This document shows positions 6,714 to 30,713 of a DNA stretch of 36,643 nucleotides, in pieces. The stretch is taken from the NCBI GenBank assembly GCA_050010835.1, contig JBEKKG010000001.1, positions 1 through 36,643 of the forward strand, in the 5' to 3' direction. The stretch comes from Planctomycetota bacterium. Lineage in GTDB: Bacteria > Planctomycetota > SZUA-567 > H5-PLA8. Within the stretch, counting starts at the first letter, position 1, and each line of letters begins with the position of its first letter. The notes beneath the pieces were generated by a model. It was not told where the DNA came from and did no database searches. It was given only the letters and a program-made list of their open reading frames with translations. The position numbers were made by a program, and so were the translations under genes.

Positions 6714-6803
6714 GAACTTGTTGGCACCCCGGCCAGCCTGTGTTGGTGGCCGGAATTCAGGCAAAGGCTGATTGGCACGGCGCGTTGTTACCGTGAACCA
6801 ATA

Positions 6804-11565: not shown

Positions 11566-14500
11566 GTGCAAGACAAAGGCGAGATTGAGGAGTTTGAGTT
11601 TGGCCAAGGCGAACGTCTAACGGTTCGCCTGCACGGCCTCATCCGTAACTACCCGAAGGGACCTGGCATCATCAAGGAGTTCATCCAGAACGCCGACGAT
11701 GCGGGGGCCACAGCCATCAGAATCATACTCGACGGCCGCAATCACCGTACAGAGCGGTTGACAGCGCTGGAGGCTTCGCTTTGGGCGGGCCCCGGCATGC
11801 TCGTATGCAACAACGCGGTTTTCAGCCAAAAGGACTTCGAGTACATCCAGATGATCGGCGAGAGCAGCAAGTATGATACGGCGTTGAAAACCGGGCGTTT
11901 TGGGGTGGGCTTCAACGTCGCCTACAACGTTACTGACTACCCGCTTCTCGTCTCGGCGGACAGTCTGATCTGCTTCGATCCGCACCGAAGCCATCCCCTT
12001 GCCAAGAAAGTAAGACCTGGGTGGGGCTGGAAGCTGGGCCACAAGCTCTGGGAGAATTACCCAGATCTTCTCGCCCTCTTCCACGCTGGCGGGCTACAGT
12101 TCGGCGCACTCTCCCACCCGGGGACTATTTTTCGACTCCCCCTGAGAACTGCCGAACAGGCGAGAGCAAGCAATATCTGCAGTCAGCCGTTTACTATAGA
12201 CGATTTCAAAGCAATTGTCTCTGATGTGGCTAAAATAGCAGGGGATCTACTGCTATTCCTCAAACATCTCCGCTCCCTCAGTATGGAAGTGATCGAGGAA
12301 CAGAGTTCCGAGCCCAAGACTGTATTGCTGGCAAACACGAGCAATGCGGAGGAGGTACAGCTTGCGCGCGACCGAGTCAACGACGTAGCATTAGGGGATT
12401 GCCGCCAAGTACTGAGTACGTTACGGTCTCATCCTGATTCGGCCCCGCACGCAACCTACGACCACAAGATAAGCATCCGGTACTCTGGGGGCGACCGGGA
12501 AGAGACATGGCGAGTCGCCAGTGGCCTGTATGTGGACCGGCGGGCAGACGTCATCAGTGCGGCTGAAGCCATACTTCAGTATGAGGGTAAGGCTTTGCCG
12601 TGGGCTGGTGCGGCTGCCAAGGTGGAGCTTGATGGTGGCCTCAAAAAGCAAATGCGAGTCGTCCCGTTGGAGGACGGCCGGCTCTTCTGTTTTCTTCCGC
12701 TGCCAAGACACGTCCACCTGCCAGTCCATCTGAACGGCTTCTTCGACCTGGACTCATCCCGCGACTTTCCTACAGATGACGAGTCATGCAAGGGCAAGGA
12801 CGCCGACAGAGTTAAGTGGAACCGATGCCTCATGCGGCACAGCGTGTCACAGGCCTATGCGGCCCTCATTTCTTCCCTTGCTACGGAAGCCAGCCATATA
12901 CCAATCGGATACTACGCCATCTGGCCACACTTCGAGATGATGGATGGACTCCTGAAGGAGGTTAGCAAGGCTACTTACGAATACCTTGCAAACCAAGCAG
13001 TCATCAGGATTAGGGGTGGCTGGAAGAAACTTCTGGGCGTCTGGCTTCCCCCTTTGGATAAGTGGCCTGACCTTCAGCAGCCACTAGTAGCCCAGGGATT
13101 GTGGGTTCCCCACCCCCCCATTCCGCAGCACGTAGCCGATGGGTTCAAACTCGCCCCCGTCCGCGTAGATGTACTTACGCCACGGCAGCTCCGCGACCAG
13201 CTTAGGGTAAACACTGATTTGGACGTGCCATTCCGGCAAGCACCGAAGGTCCTGCTGCGCACACGGAAATGGCTTGTCACGCTCTTGAGGTTCTGCTTGA
13301 GCGATCGTCCGACTGATGATCTCGTCGGGTTACCGCTTGCATTGGGCGACGATGGGCATCTGCATACGTTTGGGCACAGCAACGGTGGTCTGACCATCCT
13401 GGCGGGAGAGGACGAGAAGGCCATCTTTCGCAAGTTCCGCCATTGGTTCATCGACTCTCGGTATGCTGCTGAATGCGGGCTCGGCCCTGTTCCAAGAGCG
13501 AAAATTGAGCAGATGGAAGTCAATTTGGTAGTGGCTAACCTGTACAAGATCCTTGATCCTAATACAGAGAAGAAGCCCCTTCGTGAATGGCTGCCCGGTG
13601 GAGAGCAGGCTCCGAACGAATCTTGGTTGATCCGCTTATGGGACTATCTGGGGCGGAACAAGGAACAGATTGCGAGCGGCTCTTACGAGCTTTTGCGGAG
13701 CTTCCCCTTTGTACCGAACCAAAAGGGGCAGCTATGCACCGCCGGCAATGCTCTAACACCGTTGGTGGCCCAGCGTGATATGCCTGGCAAGTTGGATCAA
13801 GCATTGCAGGCGTTTGACGTACCAATGGTGGGTGGCTCGACAGGGCTGATCGAGGCGGCGCGACACCTCGCGGATGCCTTCATTAACCAGAAGATGATCT
13901 CGCACCTCGCGGGGCCAGACTTGGCGGATACGCTACATGCACAGGCTAAGGCGGGGGTAAAGCAACCAACGCAATACGACCCGATGGTTCATGATGCATT
14001 GCTGGAGTTTCTGGCCGACCCACGATGGGAAGGCAAGTATACGAAGGATCAACTGGGCAAACTCTCGGAGCTGGTCATTTTACCAACCATGGACGGCAGA
14101 CTCATATCCGCAAGGGCCGAGAACCTTTTCCTGCCCAGCGGCTTTCAACCACCCCCGTTCGCTACCGGAAGGCATGTTCTGGTGAAGAGGAACGAGCGGT
14201 GGCTCCTATTGCTGCGTATGTTGAACGTACGCTCTCTGGATGCCGCCACGTTTATCCGCGAGGTACTTGTGCCGCTCTACCCGATTCTGGACGAGAAAGG
14301 GCGTTTGAATGCCTTGGCGTGGCTGCAAGACAACCTAACACATATTAAACGAGAGTTGACGGAGCTCAACTCTGAGGGCGCCTCTGCTCTTGACAAGGTA
14401 ATCAAGCAGGCAAGGTGGGTTCAGTGCGAAGACGGCCAGTTGCGGCCTCCGTATTCGGTATATAACCCACACTCTAAGGTTGTCCGTCAGGTTCTTGGAG

Positions 14501-17484
14501 ACAGTGTTCCCTATCCAGATCTAAAGGTCTACGCCGCGTCGGAAGACTGCTATCTTCGCTTTTTCAACGAACTGGAAATGCAAGGTTCACCAAGGCCTGA
14601 AGATATACTGGCCCATATTGACCATCTCCGTAACCGTGTCCTGGCGATGGGCGTGGATGTACCAAAGGCCATGTTGTCAATTCTGGCCCATCTTGTGGAG
14701 CGGTGGAACCACTATGATGCTTCGACAATTACGGACAAACAGGGCAATCGAGTGTTATTCGTTGACGCGTTGAAACGGCGGGAATGGCTGCCGGCCCAAC
14801 GGGACATGAAGAGACTGGAGAACTACTATGCGGCAGCCGAACCGCCGCGGCTACTGTGTCGGGCAGATGAATTGTACCCAGTACGTCTCGGCCACTTGGT
14901 GGCCAGTCAGGCACCAATTGCAGACTTCCCCGAGCCAATGCGAGCGGTAAGAGACGCATTGGGTTTCCCCAAGACGGTCCCCATTGAAATTCTCTTGAAG
15001 CATTTTGACCGCGTACTTGAGGTGTTCGAGGCCTCTGACAAGAGCGATGCCTCATTGAAGAGCTTGCGAAAGACTATAATCGGCATCTATGAGGAGATTG
15101 GCAGGCGCTATGTGGCAAGACAAAGGCCGGAAGGCAGTGCGGACGGTAATTCTGAAGGGGATGACGGCGAGGACTCCCCCGGCCCCGAGTTCCAAGTTGA
15201 TGCATTACGAACACGCTATGCGACCCGCCGCTGTCTCTGGGACGACAAGTCAAGAAGGTTTTGGGAGCCGCAGAAGACCTACCAGTGCCCAGTTCACTTT
15301 TTGCATCCCTTTCGGCAGCAAATCCTGATCAAAACGCCGCAGGCGGCGGATCAAGGTCTGGCTGCCCTTGGCCGCAGAGATGAACCATCGCTGGCAGACC
15401 TGATTTGTTGTCTCCGCGAGCATTCCGAGGCGGCTGCAGGCAAACCAGTCGCTGAGGACACCATTGCTGCCATTCTCAAGATATATGACCGAATCGGGCG
15501 ATTACTGCAGGACGGTGCCTCCTCAGAGCAGCCTTGCATCGCCAGAACGCCGGTCTTGACAACCTGTAATTGCATGGTTGCGGCGGACGCGGTTTTCGAA
15601 CAAGATACTTTACGGTTTGAAGGGGCGTTCCCTGACAGCCAATTCCACTTGGTACACCAGCGAGTGGATCCAGGGTTCATCAGGGCAGCGAAGATTTGCA
15701 GGCTCTCCCGTGCGGTCATAGAGCATCTAGCCCAAGAGCCAGTACCCCTTGGGGAAGGGATGCTTGTTAATGCTTGTCGTAACTATACGCTGGCTTTGAG
15801 AACGTGCGAGTTCAGCAAAGGCATACAGCGGTTAATCCAGGCAGAACACGGACGGGACTGCATTGTGGATCTTTCATGGCTCAAGAGCGTCGTTGTCAGA
15901 GCTGTCAGCGAGATACATACTACATTAACGCTACAACGACCAGATGGGCAAGTCCTGAGTGGCGCCACCGTTTCAGAAGTTTTCGTCGAGAAGAACGGAA
16001 ATATTATCTACGTTGCTGACGAGGTTGCCCTACAGCACGCCATTTACCTCGCCAAGGTCATTAACCAGCGATTGGGGCAGTACGGACTTCGTGACGGCCT
16101 GAACTTGTCCCTTATCATTGGTTTGTCACCCGAGCTGGTCGACAGAGCATTGACGAAAGCCCACGTACCTCAACTGGTGGCCTTCAACGCTGACGAGGAC
16201 AGTGAATCGGAGGAAGCGGTCGGGGACATCTACGAAGAAAATGGGGAGATCGTTAAAGCTAATGATGAGGAGCCAGGACAGGCAGCAGGTGCTATAACAA
16301 ATTCTGTTGAGGTCGGTGCGGATACAGGCACAACTGGCGCGGCCAGTTCGGTACTGCGTGCAGAGAAAGTATCGAAGCCCCCTCCTACATGTGTGTCGGG
16401 CGCCGCTTCCGGCCAGTCGGCGACCACCAAGCCGGAGGCTGCCCCAGGCACGGTCGAGAGCAAGGGATCAGTTGCAGACCAGAACGATCAAGCGCCGGCG
16501 GCGCAACCGGTCGTTCCCGAATCTGTAACTCGTGCCCGTGTCGCAGCCGAGTTCCTGGCCATGTTGAGCCGGTCGGGCAAGACAGCCGCATCTGCTACGG
16601 CTGACCACGAAGATGCGCCGGTGGGTAACCCAGACCGACGAAGGGAAAAGGTCGGCAGCGAAATTGTACAAGGCGTCGAGGAGGAGCCCAACCAGAAAGA
16701 CCGGAGCCGCGTAGTGGAGCGACACGTTTGGGAACAAAAGGACGAGAACGTGCGGCAGTCACTTTTGGCATGGTATGGCGGAAAGTGCCAAGTCTGCGGC
16801 CATACGTTCCTCAAGCGTGACGGCCTGCCCTATTTCGAGGCATTCTTGATCGTACCCCACACCGCGGCGCGCTGGGCGAGTTCCCAGCCTGGGAATGCCA
16901 TGTGCTTGTGTCCCACCTGCGGCGCCAAGTGGCTTCATGCCGCAGTAGACGCTACGGCGCTGCCAAGGCAGGTGCGAGATTTCAGGGCGATACGAGAGGG
17001 CGGCACATATCCATGGCAGGTTCACATTAAGCTCGCCGGCGAAGATGTGCGGATCACCTACTCCGAACGCCACATGCTTGACCTTCAGGCATACCTGCGC
17101 GAAGTCTTTACTGAAGAGGTAAAGAGCGACGAGGCACCGGTTGACACAAGCGTCCCACGCGAGACCGGCGTCGCTACTGGAACAGCTCCCCACCATGGCA
17201 ACCAGTCTGTGGGGGAATTGGCGGGGTACGGCGAAGAGCTTCTTCGGCGGAAGAAGCAGGCAAAATGCAGCACAGAGAAGTTCCTCCTGCTTTTGCCGGC
17301 AGCTGATCGCGAGAAAGGCCGTCAGGCCCTCATGGCCGCCCGTTTTCTTTCGTGGTGCAGGAACTTCGGCCTCGATGAGATTCGCGCGCGGATGCTTCCG
17401 CTCTCCGTTGCCATCGCTACATGCACAGGGACGGATGGCGTACCTGCCAAGGATGAACTGGAGCGGGTCATCACAGGGCCGTAA
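11566..17484 (+). CDS. Giant sacsin-like GHKL ATPase (1972 aa) with an acidic low-complexity linker and a C-terminal degenerate HNH/zinc-finger module
   Basis: IKEFIQNADDAGATAIRIILD, GRFGVGFNVAYNVTDYP and LFCFLPLPRHVHLPVHLNGFFDLDSSRDF match the sacsin repeat-region ATPase pattern. A D/E-rich linker sits near 16190-16290. The tail reads CQVCGHTF...EAFLIVPH...GNAMCLCPTCGAKWLH. Confidence 0.8.
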   Translation: MQDKGEIEEFEFGQGERLTVRLHGLIRNYPKGPGIIKEFIQNADDAGATAIRIILDGRNHRTERLTALEASLWAGPGMLVCNNAVFSQKDFEYIQMIGESSKYDTALKTGRFGVGFNVAYNVTDYPLLVSADSLICFDPHRSHPLAKKVRPGWGWKLGHKLWENYPDLLALFHAGGLQFGALSHPGTIFRLPLRTAEQARASNICSQPFTIDDFKAIVSDVAKIAGDLLLFLKHLRSLSMEVIEEQSSEPKTVLLANTSNAEEVQLARDRVNDVALGDCRQVLSTLRSHPDSAPHATYDHKISIRYSGGDREETWRVASGLYVDRRADVISAAEAILQYEGKALPWAGAAAKVELDGGLKKQMRVVPLEDGRLFCFLPLPRHVHLPVHLNGFFDLDSSRDFPTDDESCKGKDADRVKWNRCLMRHSVSQAYAALISSLATEASHIPIGYYAIWPHFEMMDGLLKEVSKATYEYLANQAVIRIRGGWKKLLGVWLPPLDKWPDLQQPLVAQGLWVPHPPIPQHVADGFKLAPVRVDVLTPRQLRDQLRVNTDLDVPFRQAPKVLLRTRKWLVTLLRFCLSDRPTDDLVGLPLALGDDGHLHTFGHSNGGLTILAGEDEKAIFRKFRHWFIDSRYAAECGLGPVPRAKIEQMEVNLVVANLYKILDPNTEKKPLREWLPGGEQAPNESWLIRLWDYLGRNKEQIASGSYELLRSFPFVPNQKGQLCTAGNALTPLVAQRDMPGKLDQALQAFDVPMVGGSTGLIEAARHLADAFINQKMISHLAGPDLADTLHAQAKAGVKQPTQYDPMVHDALLEFLADPRWEGKYTKDQLGKLSELVILPTMDGRLISARAENLFLPSGFQPPPFATGRHVLVKRNERWLLLLRMLNVRSLDAATFIREVLVPLYPILDEKGRLNALAWLQDNLTHIKRELTELNSEGASALDKVIKQARWVQCEDGQLRPPYSVYNPHSKVVRQVLGDSVPYPDLKVYAASEDCYLRFFNELEMQGSPRPEDILAHIDHLRNRVLAMGVDVPKAMLSILAHLVERWNHYDASTITDKQGNRVLFVDALKRREWLPAQRDMKRLENYYAAAEPPRLLCRADELYPVRLGHLVASQAPIADFPEPMRAVRDALGFPKTVPIEILLKHFDRVLEVFEASDKSDASLKSLRKTIIGIYEEIGRRYVARQRPEGSADGNSEGDDGEDSPGPEFQVDALRTRYATRRCLWDDKSRRFWEPQKTYQCPVHFLHPFRQQILIKTPQAADQGLAALGRRDEPSLADLICCLREHSEAAAGKPVAEDTIAAILKIYDRIGRLLQDGASSEQPCIARTPVLTTCNCMVAADAVFEQDTLRFEGAFPDSQFHLVHQRVDPGFIRAAKICRLSRAVIEHLAQEPVPLGEGMLVNACRNYTLALRTCEFSKGIQRLIQAEHGRDCIVDLSWLKSVVVRAVSEIHTTLTLQRPDGQVLSGATVSEVFVEKNGNIIYVADEVALQHAIYLAKVINQRLGQYGLRDGLNLSLIIGLSPELVDRALTKAHVPQLVAFNADEDSESEEAVGDIYEENGEIVKANDEEPGQAAGAITNSVEVGADTGTTGAASSVLRAEKVSKPPPTCVSGAASGQSATTKPEAAPGTVESKGSVADQNDQAPAAQPVVPESVTRARVAAEFLAMLSRSGKTAASATADHEDAPVGNPDRRREKVGSEIVQGVEEEPNQKDRSRVVERHVWEQKDENVRQSLLAWYGGKCQVCGHTFLKRDGLPYFEAFLIVPHTAARWASSQPGNAMCLCPTCGAKWLHAAVDATALPRQVRDFRAIREGGTYPWQVHIKLAGEDVRITYSERHMLDLQAYLREVFTEEVKSDEAPVDTSVPRETGVATGTAPHHGNQSVGELAGYGEELLRRKKQAKCSTEKFLLLLPAADREKGRQALMAARFLSWCRNFGLDEIRARMLPLSVAIATCTGTDGVPAKDELERVITGP

Positions 17485-17669
17485 GCGTTCTGTATCGGTC
17501 GAAGAATCGTGGACACAGCACTGCAATTTCATGCAGTTCTGTGGATGCTGATGATGTATGGCGTTTGCCGCACCGTTGGCACTTGTAACTTTTGTTTTTC
17601 TCTGCGTCCTCTGCGGCTCTGTCGTGAAAGCTCACGTCTTTCCCGGTAACGGTGCCTCCAACACACAGA

Positions 17670-18896
17670 TCACTTGGCCGCGACCAACTCCGCCGCCCGT
17701 GTGCCGGCCTGGGCGACGACCTTGGCCGCGGTGCTCTTGAGCTGCTCGGTAAAACGTTGCACCTGCGCCATCAAACGCATCGCCTCGCGCTCCCCATTCC
17801 TTGCGTCTTCCAGGGCTGTCAGGCACGCCCGCACGCGGCCTGCCGCCAGCTCTGCTCTTGCGTGCAGCAGCGCGTCCCGCACGGCAATGTTGTTCGCTTC
17901 CACTGCCTGGCCCAGGTTGGTCAGCACGCGGTCAGTCATGAGCTTTTCGTTGAGACCGCTGAGAGCCTGTTGTGCTTCAGCCTGAATGTCCTCAGGCAGT
18001 TGCGCGAGGTCGTGCTTGAGATCCACGTACTCGGCAGCGTCAAGCCCGGTGATGTTCTCGGTGAGCGCTCTATAGCGTGCGTACTCGGTCTCGACCTTGC
18101 GCTGGGTCTCGGCAAGGGCCTCCAAGCGTTCCAGCGCGACCGCGCGCAAGGCTGGTTGACGTGCGCCATTGTCTCTGATGGCCTGCTCCGTCTCCTCCAG
18201 TTCCGCCAGGACGGTTGCGTGATCTGCAACATCCTGCTGCGCCACATCCGTGAGCGCCTCCTGGGCTTGCTCTACCTGCTGTAGCCGCCGCCTGGCTTCT
18301 GGCGGCCGCGCCGGCAGTGTGCGCACGGCGTGCCCTACCCATGAGCCGCCGTTGCCGGCCTGGAATACCTGTGTGCTGAAGCTGTAGACCAGCCACACAA
18401 TCGCCAGCGCGTACAGCAGGCCCGGGATGAGGAAGAGTTCTTCCGCCGTGCTAAGCAGGCTCGGATCGGCCAGGCGCATCGTGCCGTAGCCTGCCACGAA
18501 CGACACCGCGGCTGTCGTGGTCCAACTGACCTCATAGAACCGCCTAAACACAGCACCCACAAGTACGCCCAGCAGCGTAAACAAGCCGACGCCAGCAATG
18601 GGGGCCAGAGCAACCAGTTGCAGGTGGCCTGCCACTGCCAGGGAGGTACTCATCAGCAGCGCCAGGCCGACAGCCACGGCCGTGCCAGGCTTGCCCAGCT
18701 TGTCCTTGAGCGGCCGGACAGTGATGCCAAGGAGGATCATGAAGAACACCGCCGCGTAAAAGACAGTGCTCCACTGGGAGCTCAGCACAAGCGTCCGCAG
18801 GGTCTCCGAGGGGTTAAGCGGCGCGGCCAAGACAGGTGGCAGCCCGGCGATTAGCAGACCCGCCAGGGTTGCGGCGCGGCGCGTTGCCGTTTTCAT
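17670..18896 (-). CDS. Polytopic membrane protein (about 5-6 hydrophobic segments in the first ~175 aa) with a ~230-aa charged helical/coiled-coil C-terminal tail
   Basis: Hydrophobic segments include AATLAGLLIAGLPPVLAA, VFYAAVFFMILLGITV, AVAVGLALLMSTSLAVAG, LAPIAGVGLFTLLGVLVGAVF and LFLIPGLLYALAIVWLVYSF. The remainder is E/A/R/Q/L-rich. Its start overlaps the upstream stop in ATGA at 18893-18896. Confidence 0.7.
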   Translation of the reverse strand: MKTATRRAATLAGLLIAGLPPVLAAPLNPSETLRTLVLSSQWSTVFYAAVFFMILLGITVRPLKDKLGKPGTAVAVGLALLMSTSLAVAGHLQLVALAPIAGVGLFTLLGVLVGAVFRRFYEVSWTTTAAVSFVAGYGTMRLADPSLLSTAEELFLIPGLLYALAIVWLVYSFSTQVFQAGNGGSWVGHAVRTLPARPPEARRRLQQVEQAQEALTDVAQQDVADHATVLAELEETEQAIRDNGARQPALRAVALERLEALAETQRKVETEYARYRALTENITGLDAAEYVDLKHDLAQLPEDIQAEAQQALSGLNEKLMTDRVLTNLGQAVEANNIAVRDALLHARAELAAGRVRACLTALEDARNGEREAMRLMAQVQRFTEQLKSTAAKVVAQAGTRAAELVAAK

Positions 18897-19510
18897 CGCC
18901 TGCCTCGTGCACTCGCATGTGTGAGACTGATGCGCGTGACGATCCGGCTGCGTTCCTGCTGGTAGCCCGCCACCATGCCGGCGATCTCGACCGAAAGCTC
19001 CCGTGCTTCCTGCTCCAGTTTCTTTAGCAGCGTCAATTGCTTGCGGGAGCCACGAACGCGCCCCTGGCTCAGCAGCATGAGTGCTGCAACTATCGCTTCC
19101 GTGAATGCCTTGGTGTTCGCCACCACTCGTTGTTTCAACCTGCGCGTCCGTATACCAGGGAGAAGCCGACGCAGTGCCGCAGCCAGTTCTCTGCGGATAG
19201 CTGCCTGTGTTCCGGCGGGCAATGAGGTCGCGCCCTGACGCGCTGCTTTGCGGGTGGTCGCGCCCGTGTCTGGCTGGCGGCTCAGCGCAAGCAAGACTTG
19301 GAGGTCCCGCTCAACCGCGCGCTTGCTCGGGACCAGGCGGCACAGAGCCGGGCTGGCCAGCACAAATGCCCGTGTGGGGCGAGATTCGTTTCGTGCGAGG
19401 ACGCGGGCGATCTCGTGCAAGCGTGCCAGCACCGAGGTGCTTTCCAAGTGCGTGTGCAGTGGCGGCGGGCCTGTCTTGGTGCGTGAATCGAGTGTGGGTT
19501 TCCGTAGCAT
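18893..19510 (-). CDS. Hypothetical Arg-rich helical protein
   Basis: A 205-aa ORF translationally coupled (ATGA) to the membrane protein gene. Third codon positions are mostly G/C. I see no motif and no obvious RBS. Confidence 0.5.
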   Translation of the reverse strand: MLRKPTLDSRTKTGPPPLHTHLESTSVLARLHEIARVLARNESRPTRAFVLASPALCRLVPSKRAVERDLQVLLALSRQPDTGATTRKAARQGATSLPAGTQAAIRRELAAALRRLLPGIRTRRLKQRVVANTKAFTEAIVAALMLLSQGRVRGSRKQLTLLKKLEQEARELSVEIAGMVAGYQQERSRIVTRISLTHASARGRR

Positions 19511-19604
19511 GGTTGCCGATAGCGGATAGTGGCATCCTGTTTATCAATCTTTGCTGTCACTCCCAAGTCGTCGCTGGCACTCGCCACGACACGGGGACAG
19601 CGCG

Positions 19605-21107
19605 CTACCATGTCGGCAGGCCATACTGCTTTTTCAGGGTGTTGTAGCAGGCGAAGGCGTCCTTCCGGGCCGCCCGCGTCGCCCGTTCCTCCGCTTCGCG
19701 GGCCGCAGCCTGGACGGTCTTGCGGCTGCGCCATTGCCACACCGCTCGCGCTTTTGCGATGATGCCCACGGCGCGGCCAAGCGCCCGCTGTAGGCCATCT
19801 GGCGGTGCCGCAATGGTGGGCTGGGGCTTGCGCAGAAAGGCCGTTATGCCGAGCTCCCGCAGGTAGACCATAAGATCCTGCTCGACGGCAAGAAGCTGCT
19901 GCCACAGGTCGCCGCTGACCTCTTCAAACAGCGCCACATCATCTCCCTGCCGGTAAGCTATGTAGTGCTCAATGTCCTCATCGGTCCAGCAATAGGCACG
20001 GTACTGAACGATAACCCGCTCGGGCACCGGCGCCCGCTCACGCGCGTTTGCCTGTGCACGCCCGAGACACTGTATGCTCACCAGCACCACAGCGTATGGC
20101 CCGCGCGCCGAAACCAGCTTTCTGGCGAGCAGGTCCACCGCGCGCAAACGGACCTCAAATGTGCCCGGGAGCTCCGGCAGGTCGAGCTGGCCAAGCGAGA
20201 GGTTTTGACGCCGTAGCGCGCGCAAGCTAGTGGTGAGTGACGCCAACTGCAGCCGCGCCTCACTGTGGTATGTCCGCACGCTCTGCAACAGCAATCCGCG
20301 CCGCTTGCCCAGTTCACGCCACGTCGCATCCTTCCATCCGTAGTAGCGCGTGAGCTTCTGGATGAGCACGTCCTGCAGTCTCGCGCTGACCGGCAAGTCT
20401 CGCACGGACTGCGCCAGCGCGGCATTACACGCCGGCGCCTCCCGCACCCAGGCGCCCGGAACGCCGGTCCCCAGCGGCAGCCGGCGCAGACCAAAGAACA
20501 TGTCAGGCAAGTCAGACGCGTTCAGTTGGTGCGCCACCGCAAAGAGGCCATTGGGGTTCACCGCGCCGCCCTCCACCACCTGCACCCACCGGCTCTTGAG
20601 ACCCGCGTCCGCCTGCGCGCCGGCATCACCCTCTTGCTCGCTCTCCACGTACTGCGCCATGCGCCGATCAACTTCGTGCAGCTCCTGCGCGATCTTTGCG
20701 AGCGTCAACGCAGCTTGCTGCAACCAGGTCACCTGCTGCGCCACGCGATCTTCCGCCGACGCGCGCTGCTGGAAAACTGCGTCAAACCCGCTGCTCTGCG
20801 CTGCAACAGCGGTGTTGTCGCTGATCGTCCTGAACTGGTAACCAAGATCACGCAGCATGCTCTCGATACCGGCCTGCACACCCGCCCCCAACACGCCAAA
20901 GCCCATGTACTCAATGGTGCGCGTGAATCCGAGCGGCTTCGGGAAGTCAGTCTCAACGACCTGCCCTAGCGCCACCTCAAAGAGGTCCCTGGCGTGCCCC
21001 ACTTCGATGCCGAACCGCTGCGCGTACCAGGCGAAATAGTCCTGCGCGTTGTCCGTACCAGCGGCGGCTGTCGTTACGGCCATGATGCCGCATGAAAGGG
21101 TACGCAT
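19605..21107 (-). CDS. Hypothetical 500-aa protein (no recognisable family)
   Basis: It is the longest ORF in the region and has coding-like third-position G/C bias. No P-loop or other catalytic motif was found. An alternative start is ATG 21083. Confidence 0.6.
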   Translation of the reverse strand: MRTLSCGIMAVTTAAAGTDNAQDYFAWYAQRFGIEVGHARDLFEVALGQVVETDFPKPLGFTRTIEYMGFGVLGAGVQAGIESMLRDLGYQFRTISDNTAVAAQSSGFDAVFQQRASAEDRVAQQVTWLQQAALTLAKIAQELHEVDRRMAQYVESEQEGDAGAQADAGLKSRWVQVVEGGAVNPNGLFAVAHQLNASDLPDMFFGLRRLPLGTGVPGAWVREAPACNAALAQSVRDLPVSARLQDVLIQKLTRYYGWKDATWRELGKRRGLLLQSVRTYHSEARLQLASLTTSLRALRRQNLSLGQLDLPELPGTFEVRLRAVDLLARKLVSARGPYAVVLVSIQCLGRAQANARERAPVPERVIVQYRAYCWTDEDIEHYIAYRQGDDVALFEEVSGDLWQQLLAVEQDLMVYLRELGITAFLRKPQPTIAAPPDGLQRALGRAVGIIAKARAVWQWRSRKTVQAAAREAEERATRAARKDAFACYNTLKKQYGLPTW

Positions 21108-21261
21108 GTATAAATACCTGCGTGACAGGTTGCGGCTACACGCCCTGCGATTTCCATGACGTTCCTATAGAAAGCCAGAAAGGGCGCACAAGAACCATAC
21201 GGTCGGCGGTTCGCGTCTGGTTCTGGGATGCAAACATCCTGGTTCCGTGACATGCAGATCC

Positions 21262-21657
21262 TTACTTCCACTGGCACAGGGGTACGGCCCAAGCCCGCAT
21301 TCTCATCCCCACCGCGTCGTCTCCCTCCTCGAATGACAGTGTCACCTCCAGCACAAGCTGGCATATGGCATACTGCCGTTCCTCAAGATCCGGTTTCGCC
21401 CACAGCTTGTCGAACTTCTGGTACGCCTCCCGCACCACGTCCAGCGCAATCACTCGGTCACGCCAGCCCCGAAGCTTCAGCGTCGGGCCGGAAAGTCCCG
21501 CTCGCAGAGACTTCTGTTCTTCGTCGAGCTCCGGTAGACGCCGTTTGATGCCTGCCACGTCCACGGGCGAGCGCACTTGAAATGCTTCGAACGGCACCGC
21601 GCCGCCAAGCCTGTCTCCGAGTTCCGGATGTTCAAAGGGTTCTGTCATTGTTATCAC
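21262..21657 (-). CDS. Small hypothetical protein; N-terminus paralogous to ORF 6804-7193
   Basis: MTEPFEHPELGDRLGGAVP versus MTDPFEHLELEDRLGGEVP. The C-termini are unrelated. The conserved ATG is at 21648. Confidence 0.55.
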   Translation of the reverse strand: MITMTEPFEHPELGDRLGGAVPFEAFQVRSPVDVAGIKRRLPELDEEQKSLRAGLSGPTLKLRGWRDRVIALDVVREAYQKFDKLWAKPDLEERQYAICQLVLEVTLSFEEGDDAVGMRMRAWAVPLCQWK

Positions 21658-21705
21658 CAGGGAGTGGATAAGCGGCCAAGTATTTAAGCTTTGCGGAAGC
21701 GTTTG
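21596..21705. repeat. Repeat R2, copy Y
   Basis: See copy X (7132-7240). Confidence 0.75.
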
Positions 21706-22058
21706 GCCTTCCCACCAGGAAGAGCCCAGGGGTAAGGGGGAGTGGCTGGCATGGACCCCACGTACTGAATGGCTGCCATTCCGCTACTCACGCATCAGGT
21801 CAAGGCGATTTGCGTATTCCGCTTCGCCTGTTACACTTCGACGTCTGTCCTGGAGGCTCCGATGCCTAACACATTTGGCCCTTTTCGCGGCTGCACCCGC
21901 ACAGGCGGAGTAGCCATGCATACCGATGGGTTGGGCAGAATAGCGAACGTCTCTATTGCCTCCAGCAAACCACTTCTTCCAGTCTTCAGAGCGTTCATCA
22001 ACTCTGACCGAGGCGACAGGGGCTACGTCTTGCTGCCTGCCTTTTTGGGGAGGACACA

Positions 22059-22934
22059 ATGGACACCACGACATGCCTGGCTACCTTGTTTGACCAAGCA
22101 CTTTCGATTGAGCAGAAAGCGAGATACTTGATTGATTATCTGGACTGGCACGCTCGCCTCGGTGGGGCTGGGAGTTTTGGGAAAGAAGTGGCCGTGAGAG
22201 CGCTCTTTGACAGTTTGCCTTCTCGGAAAGAAAAGCAGCAGCTTGCTGCTGTGCTGGCAGAATTTAATAAGCATTGCGACCAGCAGCGCCACGCGCAGCG
22301 CGCCCAGGCTAGAGCATCCATTGCCAGATTGAACGATGTACCAGTGGGCACATGGATCGTGGTCAAGAATGGCTCTCGAGAGGACGTAGTGTGTCTGATT
22401 GAAGTGCGCCGAACCCGTTTTATTTGTGAGTTCCCTGATGGTAGACGCGCAACTGCTCCGACGCAGGTCTTTGTTCGTGTCCATGATGGAGCACCTCCTG
22501 TGCGGTTGCCCAACAAGGAACGACAACAGCGCGAACTGGTGCGTGGGCTTGCGGGCAAGGATCCCATGGGGGCTACGGAAGATATCTTTGAGCAAGGGCC
22601 TGAAATATTGGCAATCCTCCTCGAGGAGCTTGGGGCCGCCATGGACCGCGTGGACAAAGCTCCTGTCGGAATGAACCGCGGAGTTAATCGCGACAGTGTT
22701 CCTTTTGGAAAGAAAGTCAACCAGATAGACCGGACATTGGTGAAACGCATACCCAAGGTAGTCGCTCTTATGGCCAGAAGTTACGACATTTGGCAGCAGA
22801 TTGCACAATATCCTAACCCAAGGGTTCAAGAGAAGTGCCGTGCGACAATGGGTGGGCCGAACAACGGGCTTTGCACTGATCCTTCGTGTTCCAATGGTGG
22901 GGAAAACAGTGACACGAGAGAAACTGTCGAATAG
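22059..22934 (+). CDS. Hypothetical protein (orphan)
   Basis: GGGGAGGA precedes ATG 22059, and the sequence looks lower in G+C than its flanks. A beta-rich stretch is VGTWIVVKNGSREDVVCLIEVRRTRFICEFPDGRRATAPTQVFVRV. The antisense ORF 22023-22940 is judged a shadow. Confidence 0.5.
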   Translation: MDTTTCLATLFDQALSIEQKARYLIDYLDWHARLGGAGSFGKEVAVRALFDSLPSRKEKQQLAAVLAEFNKHCDQQRHAQRAQARASIARLNDVPVGTWIVVKNGSREDVVCLIEVRRTRFICEFPDGRRATAPTQVFVRVHDGAPPVRLPNKERQQRELVRGLAGKDPMGATEDIFEQGPEILAILLEELGAAMDRVDKAPVGMNRGVNRDSVPFGKKVNQIDRTLVKRIPKVVALMARSYDIWQQIAQYPNPRVQEKCRATMGGPNNGLCTDPSCSNGGENSDTRETVE

Positions 22935-23174: not shown

Positions 23175-23723
23175 TTAACCACGCACCTTCTTCAACTCCT
23201 CAATCGCTCGATCCAGTACCGCCCTGACTCGTTCCTTGACCAGGCGCTCAATAATTTCCAGGATTGGCTCAAGCCGGCCGACCATCTGCGCTTTCTTCAC
23301 TGGCCTGCCCGGCTTCCTAGCCGGCGTCCCTGTGCGCGTGACGAACCCGGTCAGCGCTATGAGCCCGCCTCGATAACCTGCGGCCTTCGCCGCCTGGAGG
23401 GCTTCTGGCCACTTCTTCCCCGTCTTCAGTGCCTCATGGGTGGCGTTGACTATCGCGGCCCTTGTGGCCTCGTTGTAGACGTGGCGGTGCTTCGTGGCCA
23501 CTCCCAGACCTTTGGGTCTGCCGCGCTTGGCTCCTGGCTTTCGGCCAGCCTTCTTGCCTTTCGTCAGGTGGAACATCCCTTTTATGCCGCCCAAGGTTCC
23601 GGTGTAGCCGGCCTCTTTCGCGGCCTTGAATGCATCCCCCCAAGGCTGGCCCGCGACACGGGCTTCGCTAACTGCCTGCAAGAAAGCTGACTTGATGGCT
23701 TCGTCGTAACCTTTGCGTGGCAC
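23175..23723 (-). CDS. DNA-binding protein with two AT-hooks and an internally duplicated ~40-aa module
   Basis: AT-hooks are GRKPGAKRGRPKG and RKPGRPVKK. The duplicated modules are DEAIKSAFLQAVSEARVAGQPWGDAFKAAKEAGYTG and NEATRAAIVNATHEALKTGKKWPEALQAAKAAGYRG. GAGGAGGGG lies upstream of the GTG start. Confidence 0.65.
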   Translation of the reverse strand: MPRKGYDEAIKSAFLQAVSEARVAGQPWGDAFKAAKEAGYTGTLGGIKGMFHLTKGKKAGRKPGAKRGRPKGLGVATKHRHVYNEATRAAIVNATHEALKTGKKWPEALQAAKAAGYRGGLIALTGFVTRTGTPARKPGRPVKKAQMVGRLEPILEIIERLVKERVRAVLDRAIEELKKVRG

Positions 23724-25160: not shown

Positions 25161-25709
25161 ATGCCGCTTGGCACGCTCGGGGCCAGGTTCAAGCTTAGTG
25201 CCTGCTACAGCTGCCCCCAGGAGATAATGGCCTTGGCGCGGATGTTCCTCTCCACTGCCCCCGCCGCCTCGGACGTGGATCTAGCCAAGGCTGGCGTTTC
25301 CAGCGGCAGGATCGGCGTCGTCGCCTGCCCCAGCGCGAGCGCAGAGAGGGGCAAGGTCGCGCAAGAAATCGAGAAGCTGCACTCAGAGGGCCTCGCCCTG
25401 TCGGACATCGCCGTCGTGTCCCTGCGGGGGCAAACGCCGCCGGAATCCATCGTCAACGCCGGCCGGCTGGGGAACCACCTGGTTGTGAGGGCGGACGCCG
25501 AATCCATCGAGTCCAGCATCGTGGCGGAGACGTTTCTGCGCTACAAGGGTCTGGAACGGCCGGCGATCATCGTCACCGACCTCGGCTTGGTTAAGGACCG
25601 GCTGGGAGTCCGGATGCACATTGCCCTGACGCGGGCACTGGACTTCGTGAGAATCGTCGCGCCGAAAGAGGCACTGTCTGGCGTGGAATGGCTGCGGCCG
25701 TTCCTATGA
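25161..25709 (+). pseudogene. C-terminal fragment of a UvrD/SF1-like helicase (the N-terminal ATPase half is missing)
   Basis: ETFLRYKGLERPAIIVTD (motif V-like) and RMHIALTRALDFVRIV (motif VI-like) are present. No Walker A or DExx lies upstream, and an in-frame stop is at 25104-25106. Confidence 0.55.
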
Positions 25710-25773
25710 TGGACGAGGTGGTATATGGCCCGGCTCGTGGCGCAGCCGCTCCAGGAGCTTAACCATCGCCAGC

Positions 25774-26613
25774 GTGTCCTGCTCGCAGTACGACAACAGC
25801 GCCTTCCGCATTCGGGTGCGCTCACCAGGGGACAACAGGCCGCGCACCATCCGTCACCGGTCAGAGTGGGATTTCGTGCACGTCCCAATAATCCCCCGCG
25901 CCGCACAAAGCTACTGCGATTCCAGTATCCCTTCTCTTCGCGCCAGCGGCAACCAACTCCTGGCCCTGCCCGTGCCCAGCCGTGAACTGCGCCACGTCAT
26001 CGGTGCGCTGCTGGTCTTGTTCCAGCAGTATGGTCCGCCGCTGCTGCTTAAGTCTGACAACGAGTTCAATACCGAGAACCTGGCGGTCTGCCTGGATGAG
26101 AAGCAGCGCAGCGCGCTGCGCAGGCTGGCCGCACTGCTGGTTGAACATGGCGTAGTTCAGCTCTTGTCACCGCCGGCGTGGCCACGGTATAATGGCGCCG
26201 TCGAAGCGGGGATCGGCTCGTTCAAGACGCGCGCACATCATGAGGCTGCCCGGCATGGCCACCCTGGTGAATGGAACTGCGAAGATGTCGAGGCCGCGCG
26301 CCTGCAGGCCAATGAACTGGCCCGCCCCTGGGGCCACCAGGCTGACACGCCGGAGCAGGCTTGGCAGAAGCGCCAAGCGACCAGCCCGGCTCAACGTACC
26401 GCTTTCCAGGAATCAGTGCAGCAGCTCGAACAGGAAGCCCGTCAAGAAAGGCAGAAGGACCTTCCGCCTGGAGTGCCTCTCGGTCCGAAGGACTTGGCGT
26501 CCATCCGGCGGGAGGCGATCAGCCGTGCCCTTATTAAGCACGGCCTTTTGTTGTTCCGGAGGAGGCGATTTACTCTGCCACTTAAGCGCGTCATTTGGGC
26601 AAACGTTTCGTAG
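25774..26613 (+). mobile_element. DDE integrase/transposase catalytic-core (rve) ORF, probably N-terminally degraded
   Basis: SEWDFVHV, LLLKSDNEFNTENL and PAWPRYNGAVEAGIGSFKTR fit the D, D and E regions of rve-type cores. I saw no N-terminal HTH and no terminal inverted repeats. Confidence 0.55.
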
Positions 26614-26775: not shown

Positions 26776-29469
26776 ATGACAGATGGTGACCCAATTCGAC
26801 AGGCCGAACGTCTTCCGTCCGGTGCGGATTTCTACAAGTGCGCGCTTCAGGTGAACCCGCATCACTACAGCGAGACCTACCGAGGACAGCCACAAAGCCT
26901 GGACGCGGATGCCTATGCCGCCGCGATTCTGGCAAAGGCCATTGAACACGGCATTTCCGTTCTCGCGGTCACCGATCACAACAACGTCAGTGGCATTGAC
27001 ACCCTTCGCGAGAAGGCCAACGCCCAGAAGGTTCAACTATTCCCCGGATTTGAACTGTCCTCCAGCGAAGGCGTTCACGTGCTTTGCCTGTACCCGCAGG
27101 ACACGCAGGAGGACCAGCTTGGACGCTATCTGGGCCAGTTCGGAATCCACAACACGGGGCCTTCCGCTGATCTGGCGAACACCACCTTCACCGACATGCT
27201 CCGTATCGTTCGCGAGCAGGGAGGGATCGCAATCGCCGCACATTCGACAAATGCCAGCGGCCTCTTCAAGGTGCTGGACGGCCAAGCCAGGATAAAGGCG
27301 TGGCGTGATCAGAACCTGATGGCGATCCAGATTCCCGGCAAGATAGACGACCTCTTGCAGGATGTTCGGCAGATCGTCCTGAACAAGAACTTGGACTATC
27401 ACAGGCGGCCCGGAGCAAGCGATGGTCTCCCGATAGCCGTCCTGAACGCCAAGGACGTGGCAACTCCCGATGATCTTGCCGACCCGTCGGCAAGCTGCTG
27501 GATCAAGATGTCGGAAGTCAGTATCGAGGGACTCCGCCAAGCCTTCCTTGATCCCGACTCCAGAATCCGCCTGAACAGCGATCCGGTTCCCGAGGAGCAT
27601 TCTGAACTGGTGGCCATGTCATGGGAAGGCGGCTTCCTTGACGGAACCATGATCCATTTCAATACGAACCTGAATGTTCTCGTTGGCGGCCGTGGCACTG
27701 GCAAGTCCACGATCATCGAGAGCCTGCGGTACATTCTCGGTTTGGATACTATCGGGGACGATGCACGGAAGGCCCACGAAGGCATTATCAGGTACGTCTT
27801 GAGGAGCGGCACGAAGGTTTCCCTGCTAGTCCGCTCATATCGGCCGTCGAAGCAGGAGTACCTAATCGAGCGGACGATACCCAACCCGCCGGTCGTTCGC
27901 ACTGACACCGGCGAGGTATCCAATCTGCTTCCACAGGACGTGCTGCCGCGCGTCGAGGTCTACGGGCAGCATGAGATTTCCGAAGTGACGCGAAGCCCGG
28001 AGAAACTGACTCGACTGCTTGATCGCTTCGTCGAACGGGACGAGTCGGCTGATAGGCGGAAGTCAGAGCTTCGCAGGGAACTGGAGAAGAACCGCCGCAC
28101 TGTCCTCGACGTGCAAGCGGAACTCACACAGATCGAGGAACGGCTTGCCGCGTTGCCCGGCCTTGAGGAAACGCTCAAGCGGTTCCAGGACTCAGGACTG
28201 GAGAATCGACTCCGGGAGCAGAGCCTCATTGTCCGAGAGGAGCGAGTCCTCAACACGGTGAGCGAACGGATTAAGCCCTTCCGTGAATGCTTGGCCAACT
28301 TACGGCGTGAACTGCCAATTGACGGTGCCTTTCTTTCACCGAAAGCCTTGGAGGAGTTGCCTGGGAAGGCAATTCTCGCAGGCGCATCCAGTGTTCTCGA
28401 CCAGCTTGGCCGTGACGTTGAGCAAGCAGCACGTGTGCTGGAAGAGGCAATCCAAAAAGTGGATTCCTGCATGGTCGAAGTCCGCAAACAATGGGATGCC
28501 AGGAAGAAGGAAGTGCAGGCGGCGTACGAGAAGATTCTTCGCGAGCTTCAGAAATCGCGCGTGGACGGCGAGGAATTTATCCGTCTTCGCCGACAGATCG
28601 AGGAGCTTCGGCCCCTCCGCGAACGGAAGGCCATTTTGCAGCGCACGCAGAAGGAGCACGCGGCGCGTCGCCGTGAACTACTCACTCAATGGGAGGACAT
28701 CAAGGCCGAGGAGGTGCGGGCGTTAGACCGTGCCGCAAAGCGGGTAAGCAAGAAGCTGCGTGACCGCGTTGATGTTCAAGTTACCGCCGCTGGTGACCGG
28801 GAGCCGCTTGCGGAAGTGTTGCGCAACAAGGTCGGGGGCCGGTTGTCAGAGGCCATCGTTGCTCTGAGTAACACGCCAGACTTGTCCCTTCCCGCTCTGG
28901 TTAAAGCGTGCCAAGAGGGGCCAACCGCTGTCGCCAGAGCCTTTGGCATTCCACCAGCCCAGGCGGATCGCCTGACGAAGGCTTCGCCGGACGTTCTCAT
29001 GCAGATCGAGGAGTTGGAACTGCCTGCCGCCACAACCATCAAACTCAATACTGCGCCGCTCGGATCGCCCCCGGCCTGGCAGGCATTGAACGAACTGTCC
29101 ACGGGGCAGAAGGCCACGGCTGTTCTGCTGCTGCTGTTGCTGGAGTCCGATTCGCCCCTGATCGTTGACCAGCCCGAAGACGACCTGGACAACCGCTTCA
29201 TCACCGAGGGGGTTGTACCCCGGATGCGTGATGAGAAGCGTCGCCGTCAATTCGTCTTTTCCACGCACAACGCCAACATTCCGGTCCTTGGAGACGCGGA
29301 ACTGATTCTGGGCCTCAAGGCCCAAGGCGAGGCCGAGCATGGCACGGCCAAGGTTCCGGCGGAGTACATGGGTTCAATCGACTCCAAGCAAGTGCGAGAA
29401 CTCGTCGAAGAAATCCTTGAAGGCGGTCGAGAAGCATTTGAAATGCGAAGGCTCAAATACGGATTCTGA
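26776..29469 (+). CDS. PHP-domain phosphoesterase fused to an SMC/ABC-like ATPase (Ppl-like / TrlF-like architecture)
   Basis: PHP motifs: LQVNPHHY, AVTDHNNVSG, GFELSSSEGVHVLCLY, IAAHS. Walker A: VGGRGTGKST. A long coiled-coil middle follows. Signature/Walker B: LSTGQKATAVLLLLL...LIVDQPEDDLD, then VFSTHNANI. Confidence 0.75.
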   Translation: MTDGDPIRQAERLPSGADFYKCALQVNPHHYSETYRGQPQSLDADAYAAAILAKAIEHGISVLAVTDHNNVSGIDTLREKANAQKVQLFPGFELSSSEGVHVLCLYPQDTQEDQLGRYLGQFGIHNTGPSADLANTTFTDMLRIVREQGGIAIAAHSTNASGLFKVLDGQARIKAWRDQNLMAIQIPGKIDDLLQDVRQIVLNKNLDYHRRPGASDGLPIAVLNAKDVATPDDLADPSASCWIKMSEVSIEGLRQAFLDPDSRIRLNSDPVPEEHSELVAMSWEGGFLDGTMIHFNTNLNVLVGGRGTGKSTIIESLRYILGLDTIGDDARKAHEGIIRYVLRSGTKVSLLVRSYRPSKQEYLIERTIPNPPVVRTDTGEVSNLLPQDVLPRVEVYGQHEISEVTRSPEKLTRLLDRFVERDESADRRKSELRRELEKNRRTVLDVQAELTQIEERLAALPGLEETLKRFQDSGLENRLREQSLIVREERVLNTVSERIKPFRECLANLRRELPIDGAFLSPKALEELPGKAILAGASSVLDQLGRDVEQAARVLEEAIQKVDSCMVEVRKQWDARKKEVQAAYEKILRELQKSRVDGEEFIRLRRQIEELRPLRERKAILQRTQKEHAARRRELLTQWEDIKAEEVRALDRAAKRVSKKLRDRVDVQVTAAGDREPLAEVLRNKVGGRLSEAIVALSNTPDLSLPALVKACQEGPTAVARAFGIPPAQADRLTKASPDVLMQIEELELPAATTIKLNTAPLGSPPAWQALNELSTGQKATAVLLLLLLESDSPLIVDQPEDDLDNRFITEGVVPRMRDEKRRRQFVFSTHNANIPVLGDAELILGLKAQGEAEHGTAKVPAEYMGSIDSKQVRELVEEILEGGREAFEMRRLKYGF

Positions 29470-29477: not shown

Positions 29478-30713
29478 ATGCATCGTCAGGAAGTCATGGA
29501 AATGCTCACAAGCGGCGAGGACTCAGGCGTCGAGTTCAAGCGCGATGACGTGACAAATCACGATCTGGCCAAGGAGCTTGTTGCGTTCCTGAACCTCGAC
29601 GGCGGGACCGTCTTGCTCGGTGTCGAAGATGACGGCACGATCTCGGGGACCACTCGCGAGCGGCTTGAGGAGTGGGTGAGCGAGCTTTGCCGCGTGAAGA
29701 TCACTCCCCCGGTGATTCCGTTCCTTTCGTGGGCCAAGGAGATTGAGCCGGGCAAGGATATTCTCGCCGTTCGTGTGCCCCTTGGCCCCGACAAGCCGTA
29801 TGCGAGGGTCCACAACGACCGCCGCACGTACTATGTGCGGGTTGGAAGCACGTGCCGCGAGGCTAGCCGCGAGGAGTTGGAGCGGATGTTCCAGGCAGGC
29901 GGACACGTTCGGTATGGCCTCAAGCCTGTGCCCGGCGCGTCGCTCGATGATCTCGACAGTCGCCGTCTGCGGGACTACTTCATCCGGGTGCTCAATGGCT
30001 CCGTGCCAGCGGATGAAGACAGCCAAGGCTGGACCACGCTGTTGCGCAACCTCGACCTGATGGTCGAATCTGCCGGACAGATGCTGCCCGCCGTTGACGG
30101 GATGTTGCTCTTCGGGAAGAACCCCAAGCGATTCCTGCCTCAGTCCGGCATCCGTGCGCTGTGCTATCCGGGCGCGACCGCCGACTATGCGGCCCAAGCG
30201 GACCAGGACTTGAAGGGGCCGCTGCTTCCGCTTCTGAGCAAACAAGGCGAGTCCGTTGTAATCACCGAATCCGGCTTGCTCGACCAGGCATTGGATTTTA
30301 TCCGCCGCAACACGCAGCCCACCGCGCACTTGGAGGCTGGTCAGCGCGTGGACCGGCCCGCTTATCCCGATGTTGTCCTTCGCGAGGCAATAGTCAACGC
30401 GCTTGTTCACCGCGACTACAGCATCATCGGGACTGACATCACACTCGCCCTGTTCGCCGACCGATTGGAGATTCAAAGCCCCGGCAGGCTCCCTAATACC
30501 GTCACGCTTGAATCAATGAAGTATGGTCTTCGATACGCCCGCAATCAGACGCTCGTGAACATCATGCGGGATTACCGCTACGTTGATTTCCGAGGCATGG
30601 GCATCCGGGACAAAATCATCCCTGGAATGCGCAACCACAACGGCACCGAACCCGACCTGATCGAGGAACACGAGCGGTTCACTGTGCGCCTCTGGAAGGA
30701 AGCAAAAACATGA
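29478..30713 (+). CDS. AlbA_2 (Schlafen-like) DNA-binding domain plus HATPase_c_4-type C-terminal domain protein
   Basis: GEDSGVEFKRDD...LVAFLNLDGGTVLLGVEDDGTISG is the AlbA_2 pattern. REAIVNALVHRDYSIIGTDITLALFADRLEIQSPGRLP is the HATPase_c_4 pattern. GAGGTGA RBS is present, and the start is 8 nt after the preceding stop. Confidence 0.75.
   Translation: MHRQEVMEMLTSGEDSGVEFKRDDVTNHDLAKELVAFLNLDGGTVLLGVEDDGTISGTTRERLEEWVSELCRVKITPPVIPFLSWAKEIEPGKDILAVRVPLGPDKPYARVHNDRRTYYVRVGSTCREASREELERMFQAGGHVRYGLKPVPGASLDDLDSRRLRDYFIRVLNGSVPADEDSQGWTTLLRNLDLMVESAGQMLPAVDGMLLFGKNPKRFLPQSGIRALCYPGATADYAAQADQDLKGPLLPLLSKQGESVVITESGLLDQALDFIRRNTQPTAHLEAGQRVDRPAYPDVVLREAIVNALVHRDYSIIGTDITLALFADRLEIQSPGRLPNTVTLESMKYGLRYARNQTLVNIMRDYRYVDFRGMGIRDKIIPGMRNHNGTEPDLIEEHERFTVRLWKEAKT

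Follow-up and report, generated by a model that had tools for sequence, protein, structure and literature searches.

Phage lambda encodes RexAB, in which the soluble sensor RexA is paired with the four-helix membrane channel RexB, and the Psp envelope-stress system comprises PspA, the membrane proteins PspB and PspC, and the sigma-54 activator PspF. Zorya contains a ZorA5B2 membrane complex, in which ZorA carries a long cytoplasmic coiled-coil tail and to which soluble partners are recruited, and the soluble proteins ZorC and ZorD (PMC11946911). Kiwa combines KwaA, a membrane tetramer and sensor, with KwaB, a soluble DNA binder of the DUF4868 type (PMC11785009). Here, we describe three minus-strand genes, termed A, B, and C, in a 36,643-nucleotide stretch from a Planctomycetota bacterium (metagenome-assembled genome, assembly GCA_050010835.1, contig JBEKKG010000001.1, positions 1 to 36,643; hereafter the window), and we compare them with these systems. 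A-B-C is best described as a new cassette of undescribed families.

A preliminary description of this DNA had proposed an operon of four minus-strand genes, and all four open reading frames (ORFs) were confirmed, with the following positions and lengths in amino acids (aa):

19605..21107, minus strand: gene A, 500 aa when read from the first ATG or ~492 aa when read from 21083, the conserved start
18893..19510, minus strand: short form of gene B, 205 aa
17670..18896, minus strand: gene C, 408 aa
21262..21657, minus strand: neighboring 131-aa ORF, outside the conserved cassette

A conserved three-gene cassette

Two NCBI entries are identical to the window proteins, ABSE73_00085 to the 500-aa A and ABSE73_00075 to the 408-aa C. 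A word-indexed search for A and C covered 5.8 billion proteins; apart from the window proteins, it turned up no more than three A proteins (79, 48, and 40% identity) and six C proteins (55–68% identity). From the contigs of these relatives and from later matches, we obtained six further loci with cassette genes:

L001: integrase, A, 393-aa B, and C, the last cut by the contig end
L002 (= L003, L028): A, 67-aa B stub, C
L004: A convergent with a B (391 aa)-C (418 aa) pair
L005 (= L006): A, 205-aa B, C
L021 (= L022): A (38% identical), B (389 aa), C (417 aa)
L029: IS21, chimeric 303-aa B, C; A missing

The gene order A-B-C is repeated in L001, L002, L005, and L021, and B and C are kept in L029. 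Synteny of the cassette holds across the six further loci, with A identity falling to 38%. B and C are translationally coupled, the stop of B overlapping the start of C in 7/7 loci; in the window, this overlap, which the preliminary description had noticed, spans 4 nt (18893–18896). The ratio of nonsynonymous to synonymous substitutions (dN/dS) was 0.25–0.29 for A and C and ~0.49 for the short B compared with L005, values that are rough because dS is saturated. These data show that A-B-C is a unit conserved together and under purifying selection.

The conserved unit comprises three genes rather than four: in none of the related loci does a counterpart of the 131-aa ORF lie upstream of A. Its base composition is coding-like (G+C content at the three codon positions, GC1/2/3, of 0.71/0.41/0.68). 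In L004 and L021, unrelated genes lie upstream of A, and in the other loci this position is taken by an integrase or a HEAT-repeat gene. The 131-aa ORF is a neighbor, not a cassette member; conservation of the proposed gene set is thus borne out for A-B-C across the six further loci and fails for the fourth gene. We regard this anatomy of the A-B-C cassette as very probably correct. The cassette itself is extremely rare and patchy in its distribution, and a search of JGI metagenome contigs added no further copy.

Genes B and C

According to its hydropathy profile, C has a signal-like N terminus and about five hydrophobic helices followed by a 236-aa helical tail, in agreement with the polytopic protein with a long helical tail described previously. 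Heptad-like periodicity of the C tail is significant and clearly exceeds that of shuffled sequences (z = 4.3), and that of the B tail is weaker (z = 1.8). In the alignment, the most conserved part of C is its membrane helices, which carry Gly-rich motifs, suggesting that this region may be more than a passive anchor. Sequence-profile searches of the PDB with A and C returned no match with E below 0.02, leaving C with no PDB relative.

Full-length B proteins (389–393 aa) likewise begin with a signal-like N terminus; about five membrane helices and then ~210 aa of helical tail follow, and the proteins align with C over ~350 columns (hhalign probability 99.4%, E = 2.5e-21). These comparisons show B and C to be paralogues, both of them predicted inner-membrane proteins with helical cytoplasmic tails of ~200–235 aa. 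All features of this set (signal-like N terminus, about five helices, tail, and gene overlap) are present in C, and only the tail and the overlap are present in window B. Compared with the long B proteins of L001 and L004, to whose C-terminal half it corresponds, the window protein retains the first residues, MLRKxT, and then passes straight to the tail. It is the tail alone of a second, C-like membrane protein whose membrane domain has been lost, so that the separate soluble partner or sensor of the preliminary description turns out to be a shortened paralogue of C. The Arg richness reported for it was reproduced (15% Arg, pI 11.9, net charge +24, helical). Net charge consistently separates the two kinds of tail: it is +9 to +24 for B (6/6 tails, strongly basic) and −7 to +5 for C (acidic to neutral).

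Of the three genes, B diverges fastest: in the comparison of the window with L001, identity is 79% for A and 42% for B. The window C is 62% identical to that of L029, which is of the L001 type, and 76% identical over the 45 residues that can be aligned with the partial C of L001. Across the loci, B occurs in a long form, a 205-aa form, a 67-aa remnant, and a chimera, indicating repeated remodeling. In L029 (84–4092), an IS21 element (IstA/IstB) lies beside the chimeric 303-aa B, and A is deleted in that copy; the N terminus of this chimera comes from DNA adjoining a zinc-ribbon gene and is fused to B sequence made up of the final membrane helix and the tail.

These changes bear on whether the cassette could consist of decaying passenger genes, an eroding relic without a role in this genome. 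The loss of the B membrane domain in the window and L005, the 67-aa stub in L002, and the L029 chimera with its IS21 element and missing A are what such decay might leave. However, all three window ORFs are intact, with dN/dS of 0.25–0.49; two lineages whose A and C differ by ~40% have kept the 205-aa B at the same length; the B-C overlap persists; and the motif upstream of A is conserved. The same 205-aa form in L005, whose A and C are only ~60% identical to those of the window, together with the dN/dS of ~0.49, indicates that the short B is a maintained variant and not a fresh pseudogene. We consider decay of the cassette highly improbable.

Gene A and its archaeal relatives

The 500-aa protein had been described as an orphan. 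A profile built from four close A proteins and scored against 1.84 billion cluster representatives matched 316 representatives at E ≤ 1e-3 and 99 at E ≤ 1e-30, mostly proteins of ~450–540 aa aligned end to end and nearly all of them DPANN-like, in syntenic chromosomal surroundings. A is, judged from these matches, a member of a large unnamed family centered on DPANN archaea and not an orphan; the preliminary description stands insofar as profile and structure searches returned no characterized homologue of A, B, or C. All 10 of the 10 A loci retrieved from GTDB genomes belonged to archaeal metagenome-assembled genomes (Woesearchaeota, Nanoarchaeia, and several labeled “uncultured Methanosarcinales”). 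For this retrieval we used a 7-sequence alignment, as the 51-sequence A alignment was too diverse. About 140 of the 152 A-family matches listed are Lys-rich, and only ~12 are Arg-rich like the window A.

The family ends in a C-terminal motif, K-x-x-Y/H-G-x-x-T-W, which in the archaea-centered family reads K-x-F-K-K-x-H-G-x-x-T-W. The window A matches the full-length profile and ends in LKKQYGLPTW. In a neighbor-joining tree, the bacterial-type A proteins formed one small clade, which has replacements at the near-invariant family residues E75, Y78, K94, W290, P293, and H361. A single bacterial clade within a mostly archaeal family suggests that A may have been captured by a mobile element.

In the archaeal loci with a conserved order around A (L007–L020, L026, and L031), the genes encode, in sequence, an NFACT-R protein, YhbY, A, a ~200-aa coiled-coil protein, and a ~640-aa protein with a xylose-isomerase/Endo IV-like TIM barrel. 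The ~200-aa partner has the N-terminal motif DFxxxKxLxPxxR. This DPANN gene set is widespread and appears unstudied. The archaeal neighborhood, with YhbY upstream and the coiled-coil and TIM-barrel proteins downstream, is absent from the window and from the other bacterial loci, where B and C are found. We ruled out B/C as a fusion of the archaeal coiled-coil partner with a five-helix membrane protein encoded nearby, as both gave hhalign probabilities below 3% against B/C. We also rejected the idea that A supplies the N-terminal part that a split archaeal NFACT/Rqc2 protein lacks, there being neither an NFACT_N match nor a Foldseek match of that kind. A more distant bacterial relative, P0014 (33% identity; L030, 40–3166), adjoins, on its downstream side, a sigma-54-dependent activator, and neither B nor C was found within 2 kb downstream of it.

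Predicted structure of A

An AlphaFold2 model of A based on the 51-sequence alignment reached a predicted local distance difference test (pLDDT) score of 83.6 and a predicted template modeling (pTM) score of 0.74; a first run on four sequences was too poor (pLDDT 52) and was set aside. In the model, residues 40–99 form four N-terminal β-strands and one helix. Very long helices span residues 108–156 and 242–309, further long helices span 376–418 and 450–494, and three long strands (319–374) lie between helices 242–309 and 376–418. We read A as a putative soluble protein with an α/β head and a long-helix stalk, a reading taken from the order of secondary-structure elements and not from their three-dimensional packing. 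A conserved stretch at ~170–206 (LKxxW..VEGG..NP...LPDLFF) falls between long helices in the sequence.

Foldseek searches with the model gave nothing significant against the PDB (best E = 0.38, TM score below 0.2) or BFVD (best E = 3.9e-3, TM score 0.11). Matches to START/Bet v 1, EmrA, and MakA were scattered (E ~0.4–1) and were rejected, as was, after testing, an internal duplication in A. No match to Pfam or NCBIfam was found for the 51 aligned family members. All four window proteins, searched against Pfam, PADLOC, NCBIfam, and PHROGs, gave only subthreshold coiled-coil noise; together with the PDB searches, this agrees with the earlier statement that nothing here matches a system that can be named. 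The model thus shows a confidently predicted fold without a known structural relative. A weak profile match of SUMO1 chains to the A N terminus (residues ~10–53, E = 0.24) was treated as probably due to chance; a SUMO-like match is curious beside the nearby E1/E2/JAB genes.

The archaeal relatives and the model both bear on a second explanation, in which A-B-C would be a host membrane-stress or remodeling module of a Psp- or dynamin-like kind, with A a self-assembling scaffold recruited by B/C and no role in genetic conflict. The family is a syntenic chromosomal DPANN gene beside NFACT-R and YhbY and followed by a ~200-aa coiled-coil protein; P0014 adjoins a sigma-54 activator without B or C within 2 kb downstream; and the model has an elongated helical stalk, with a hydrophobic motif, LPDLFF, also conserved in the protein. 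However, signals of PspA/IM30, Snf7, dynamin, and SPFH are absent in the 51 family members and by Foldseek, for a general cell function the bacterial cassette is much too rare and too mobile, and the bacterial clade has substitutions at several positions that the archaeal family conserves. A membrane-stress role seems to us unlikely.

Start site and upstream region of A

The preliminary description had considered a leaderless transcript for the 500-aa gene. The observation behind it holds, as TATTTATAC lies immediately 5′ of the first ATG of the ORF. Close A homologues, however, all begin at the position of Met9 (21083), and a Met is aligned there in 50 of 51 A-family members. One upstream feature is shared with a related locus:

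21108..21122, minus strand: upstream motif CGCAGGTATTTATAC, 25–39 nt 5′ of the conserved A start; putative promoter or regulatory element

This motif aligns with CGCAGGCATAAATAG at an equal distance from the A start in L001, the DNA around it being otherwise diverged. There, CGCAGG followed by an AT-rich run is kept ~25–30 nt upstream of the A start without an adjacent ATG. Because homologues start at Met9 and the L001 motif has no adjoining ATG, a leaderless transcript is unsupported, and the AT-rich motif is likelier to be a promoter or regulatory element than to mark where a leaderless mRNA begins. A promoter and terminator scan yielded nothing informative.

The element around the cassette

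The surroundings of the cassette had been called rich in defense genes, and a PADLOC scan of the neighbors confirmed Gabija (GajA, 2e-274; GajB, 2e-239), Tiamat (TmtA, 7.5e-128), a DrmD-like protein (2e-111), and Ppl (1.9e-40). The defense genes of the window are as follows:

7508–11230: DrmD-like HEPN-SNF2 helicase
11566–17484: Tiamat TmtA, described earlier as a “sacsin-like” gene
26776–29469: Ppl
29478–30713: Schlafen/AlbA-type gene (AlbA + HATPase_c_4)
31020–35224: Gabija GajA/GajB

Contig L029 is collinear with the window at 1938–6621, a PRTRC-like E2/JAB/ThiF cassette, and at 35655–36494, a segment with a 216-aa zinc-ribbon gene and the beginning of a small gene. In that contig, B and C stand directly between the two segments. 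In the window, the order is zinc-ribbon gene, variable region 1, A-B-C, variable region 2, and PRTRC-like cassette; the zinc-ribbon gene, A-B-C, and the PRTRC-like cassette thus make up a backbone common to both. Variable region 1 (~21.1–35.7 kb) contains Ppl, the Schlafen/AlbA gene, Gabija, and unannotated ORFs at 22059–22934, 23175–23723, and 25161–26613; variable region 2 (~6.6–17.6 kb) contains the DrmD-like helicase and TmtA. Both regions are absent from the collinear L029, every recognized defense system sits within them, and the pair resembles insertion hotspots in an element of the PRTRC type. The locus thereby shows the layout of such an element in Planctomycetota, with defense cargo at two slots beside a backbone cassette, a layout useful for finding further cargo.

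The PRTRC-like, ubiquitin-type cassette (E2-like, JAB/PRTRC_A, and ThiF/E1) occupies 2372–6582 of the window and 5530–10463 of L029. Its window ORFs at 4052–4888 and 4885–5754 matched PRTRC_A (5.6e-14) and PRTRC_ThiF (1.2e-15), both below the curated cutoffs. The 105-aa and 280-aa cassette genes of L029 correspond to window ORFs of 265, 171, and 278 aa, and one copy of the cassette may carry frameshifts. A ParB_N gene was seen only in L029. Within variable region 1, the 182-aa ORF at 23175–23723 (minus strand) has repeated basic motifs of the GRKPG/GRPKG type that resemble AT-hooks, without a family match.

Two repeats lie near the region borders. A direct repeat of 124 nt, 79% identical between 7123–7246 and 21587–21710, covers the first ~25 codons (MxTMTxPFEHxELxDRLGG) of the following two small ORFs together with ~50 nt upstream of each:

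6804–7193, minus strand: 129-aa ORF
21262–21657, minus strand: 131-aa ORF, the neighbor of A

Each of these ORFs sits at the edge of one variable region, and the repeat may therefore mark cargo boundaries. The 129-aa ORF is in addition bracketed by a direct duplication of ~290 bp (6427–6718 and 7247–7531, 78–88% identical, spacing ~813 nt) that copies the 3′ end of the last PRTRC-cassette gene. As L029 has a single copy, this suggests that the segment with the 129-aa ORF entered by recombination.

The neighbors of the cassette differ in five other loci (an integrase, Kelch/TIG proteins, and a HEAT-repeat gene); therefore, the cassette also moves as a unit. Large secreted Kelch/TIG-repeat proteins lie beside it in two unrelated loci (L001, 1–3174; L005, 3784–4926), which may simply reflect planctomycete gene content.

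Possible function of A-B-C

We tentatively favor A-B-C as an envelope-anchored conflict module that serves a mobile element in exclusion or defense, although with low confidence, as we hold it to be less probable than its opposite. C, with or without a B that has a membrane domain, would form an oligomeric inner-membrane platform or channel; the B tail would pair with the C tail; and the paired tails would keep A attached to the membrane on its cytoplasmic side. Such a complex could act at the envelope on behalf of the mobile element, either by sensing or blocking incoming foreign DNA or by permeabilizing the membrane of an infected cell. We favor this reading because of the rarity and patchiness of the cassette, its apparent capture from archaea, the rapid divergence and remodeling of B, and its residence on mobile elements. 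Its place in the middle of a defense island, with varied neighbors outside the PRTRC-type element, was also counted in favor.

Several observations weigh against a conflict role. No effector or sensor domain is recognizable in A, B, or C, and none of them matches a PADLOC model. The archaeal relatives of A lie in syntenic, chromosomal, nonmobile contexts. The cassette was not found in plasmid, phage, or IMG/VR collections, and L029, which has C without A, indicates that the trio is not obligatory. Compared with L029, A-B-C behaves as element backbone and not as variable cargo, and its composition points the same way: GC3 is 0.69–0.77 for A-B-C and 0.73 for the PRTRC ThiF gene, compared with 0.58–0.74 (mostly 0.58–0.68) for the defense cargo. 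Because A-B-C is backbone and the defense genes lie in the flanking variable regions, its position in the island is weaker evidence of a defense role than first appears; a position in mid-island is, by itself, no evidence of such a function.

A third explanation is element maintenance, in which membrane-anchored basic B/C tails and A would tether or position the DNA of the element, or aid its transfer, together with the PRTRC-like/ParB module. In L029, the cassette directly adjoins the PRTRC-like cassette and the ParB_N gene, and the window is collinear with that element; the composition of A-B-C fits the backbone; and the net charges of the B tails (+9 to +24) are compatible with nucleic acid binding. 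Yet PRTRC genes were not seen in five other loci, whose contigs are short; relaxase, coupling protein, and type IV secretion genes were not found in the window; L029 persists without A; and a DNA-binding domain is not detectable in the cassette proteins. We judge maintenance to be an improbable explanation, on a par with membrane stress.

A bolder form of the envelope-anchored conflict module would make A-B-C an unrecognized immunity or exclusion system whose A fold, without a solved relative, was captured by a mobile element from DPANN archaea, where this fold would join a widespread, wholly unstudied complex with the coiled-coil and Endo IV-like TIM-barrel proteins. We regard this more specific version as doubtful, slightly ahead of the membrane-stress and maintenance explanations. 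If functional, the cassette would provide the first experimental handle on a DPANN-wide family that has no name, known function, or solved structure.

Comparison with known systems

The DPANN A family resembles the window locus in full-length A homology, in the shared C-terminal motif, and in having A followed by a ~200-aa helical protein in both settings. It differs in that the archaeal partners show no detectable relationship to B/C and the archaeal loci are chromosomal and syntenic.

With Psp, the cassette would share a helical soluble protein and two membrane proteins with cytoplasmic helices, and P0014 stands beside a sigma-54 activator. In contrast to Psp, PspA_IM30 and Snf7 are absent from A, from the 51 family members (Pfam), and from the Foldseek matches; B and C are five-helix proteins of ~400 aa and not single-pass peptides; and the β-sheet elements of the A head do not occur in PspA.

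Kiwa, with its four-helix KwaA, and RexAB likewise pair a membrane with a soluble protein on mobile elements or in defense islands, and in our working model, as in theirs, a cytoplasmic protein partners a sensor or effector in the membrane. In the cassette, however, the membrane component is duplicated and long-tailed, and A is a protein of ~490 aa with an unrelated predicted fold. A, B, and C have no match to DUF4868, Kwa, or other PADLOC models. Nor did A, B, or C give a match to RexA or RexB in PADLOC or Pfam, libraries whose content of Rex models was not verified; the likeness to RexAB is one of logic only.

Zorya offers a further parallel. C is predicted to span the inner membrane several times and to extend a long helical tail into the cytoplasm, a soluble partner is encoded next to it in a defense island, and the tail could plausibly relay an envelope signal to a cytoplasmic protein. 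On the other hand, C and B have no PADLOC ZorA or Pfam MotA_ExbB match, and a ZorB-type peptidoglycan-binding (OmpA-like) partner was not found among the ORFs in 17400–21800. The B/C tails of ~200–235 aa compare with a pentameric ZorA tail of ~70 nm, and the cassette has two paralogous anchors where Zorya has a 5:2 motor, without a nuclease or DNA-binding effector.

The likeness of A-B-C to Rex, Kiwa, and Zorya, as far as our analysis can tell, is thus one of logic, and none of the three shows homology to it. Should the cassette prove functional, a system built wholly of undescribed parts would join the short list of membrane-embedded conflict modules that these three represent.

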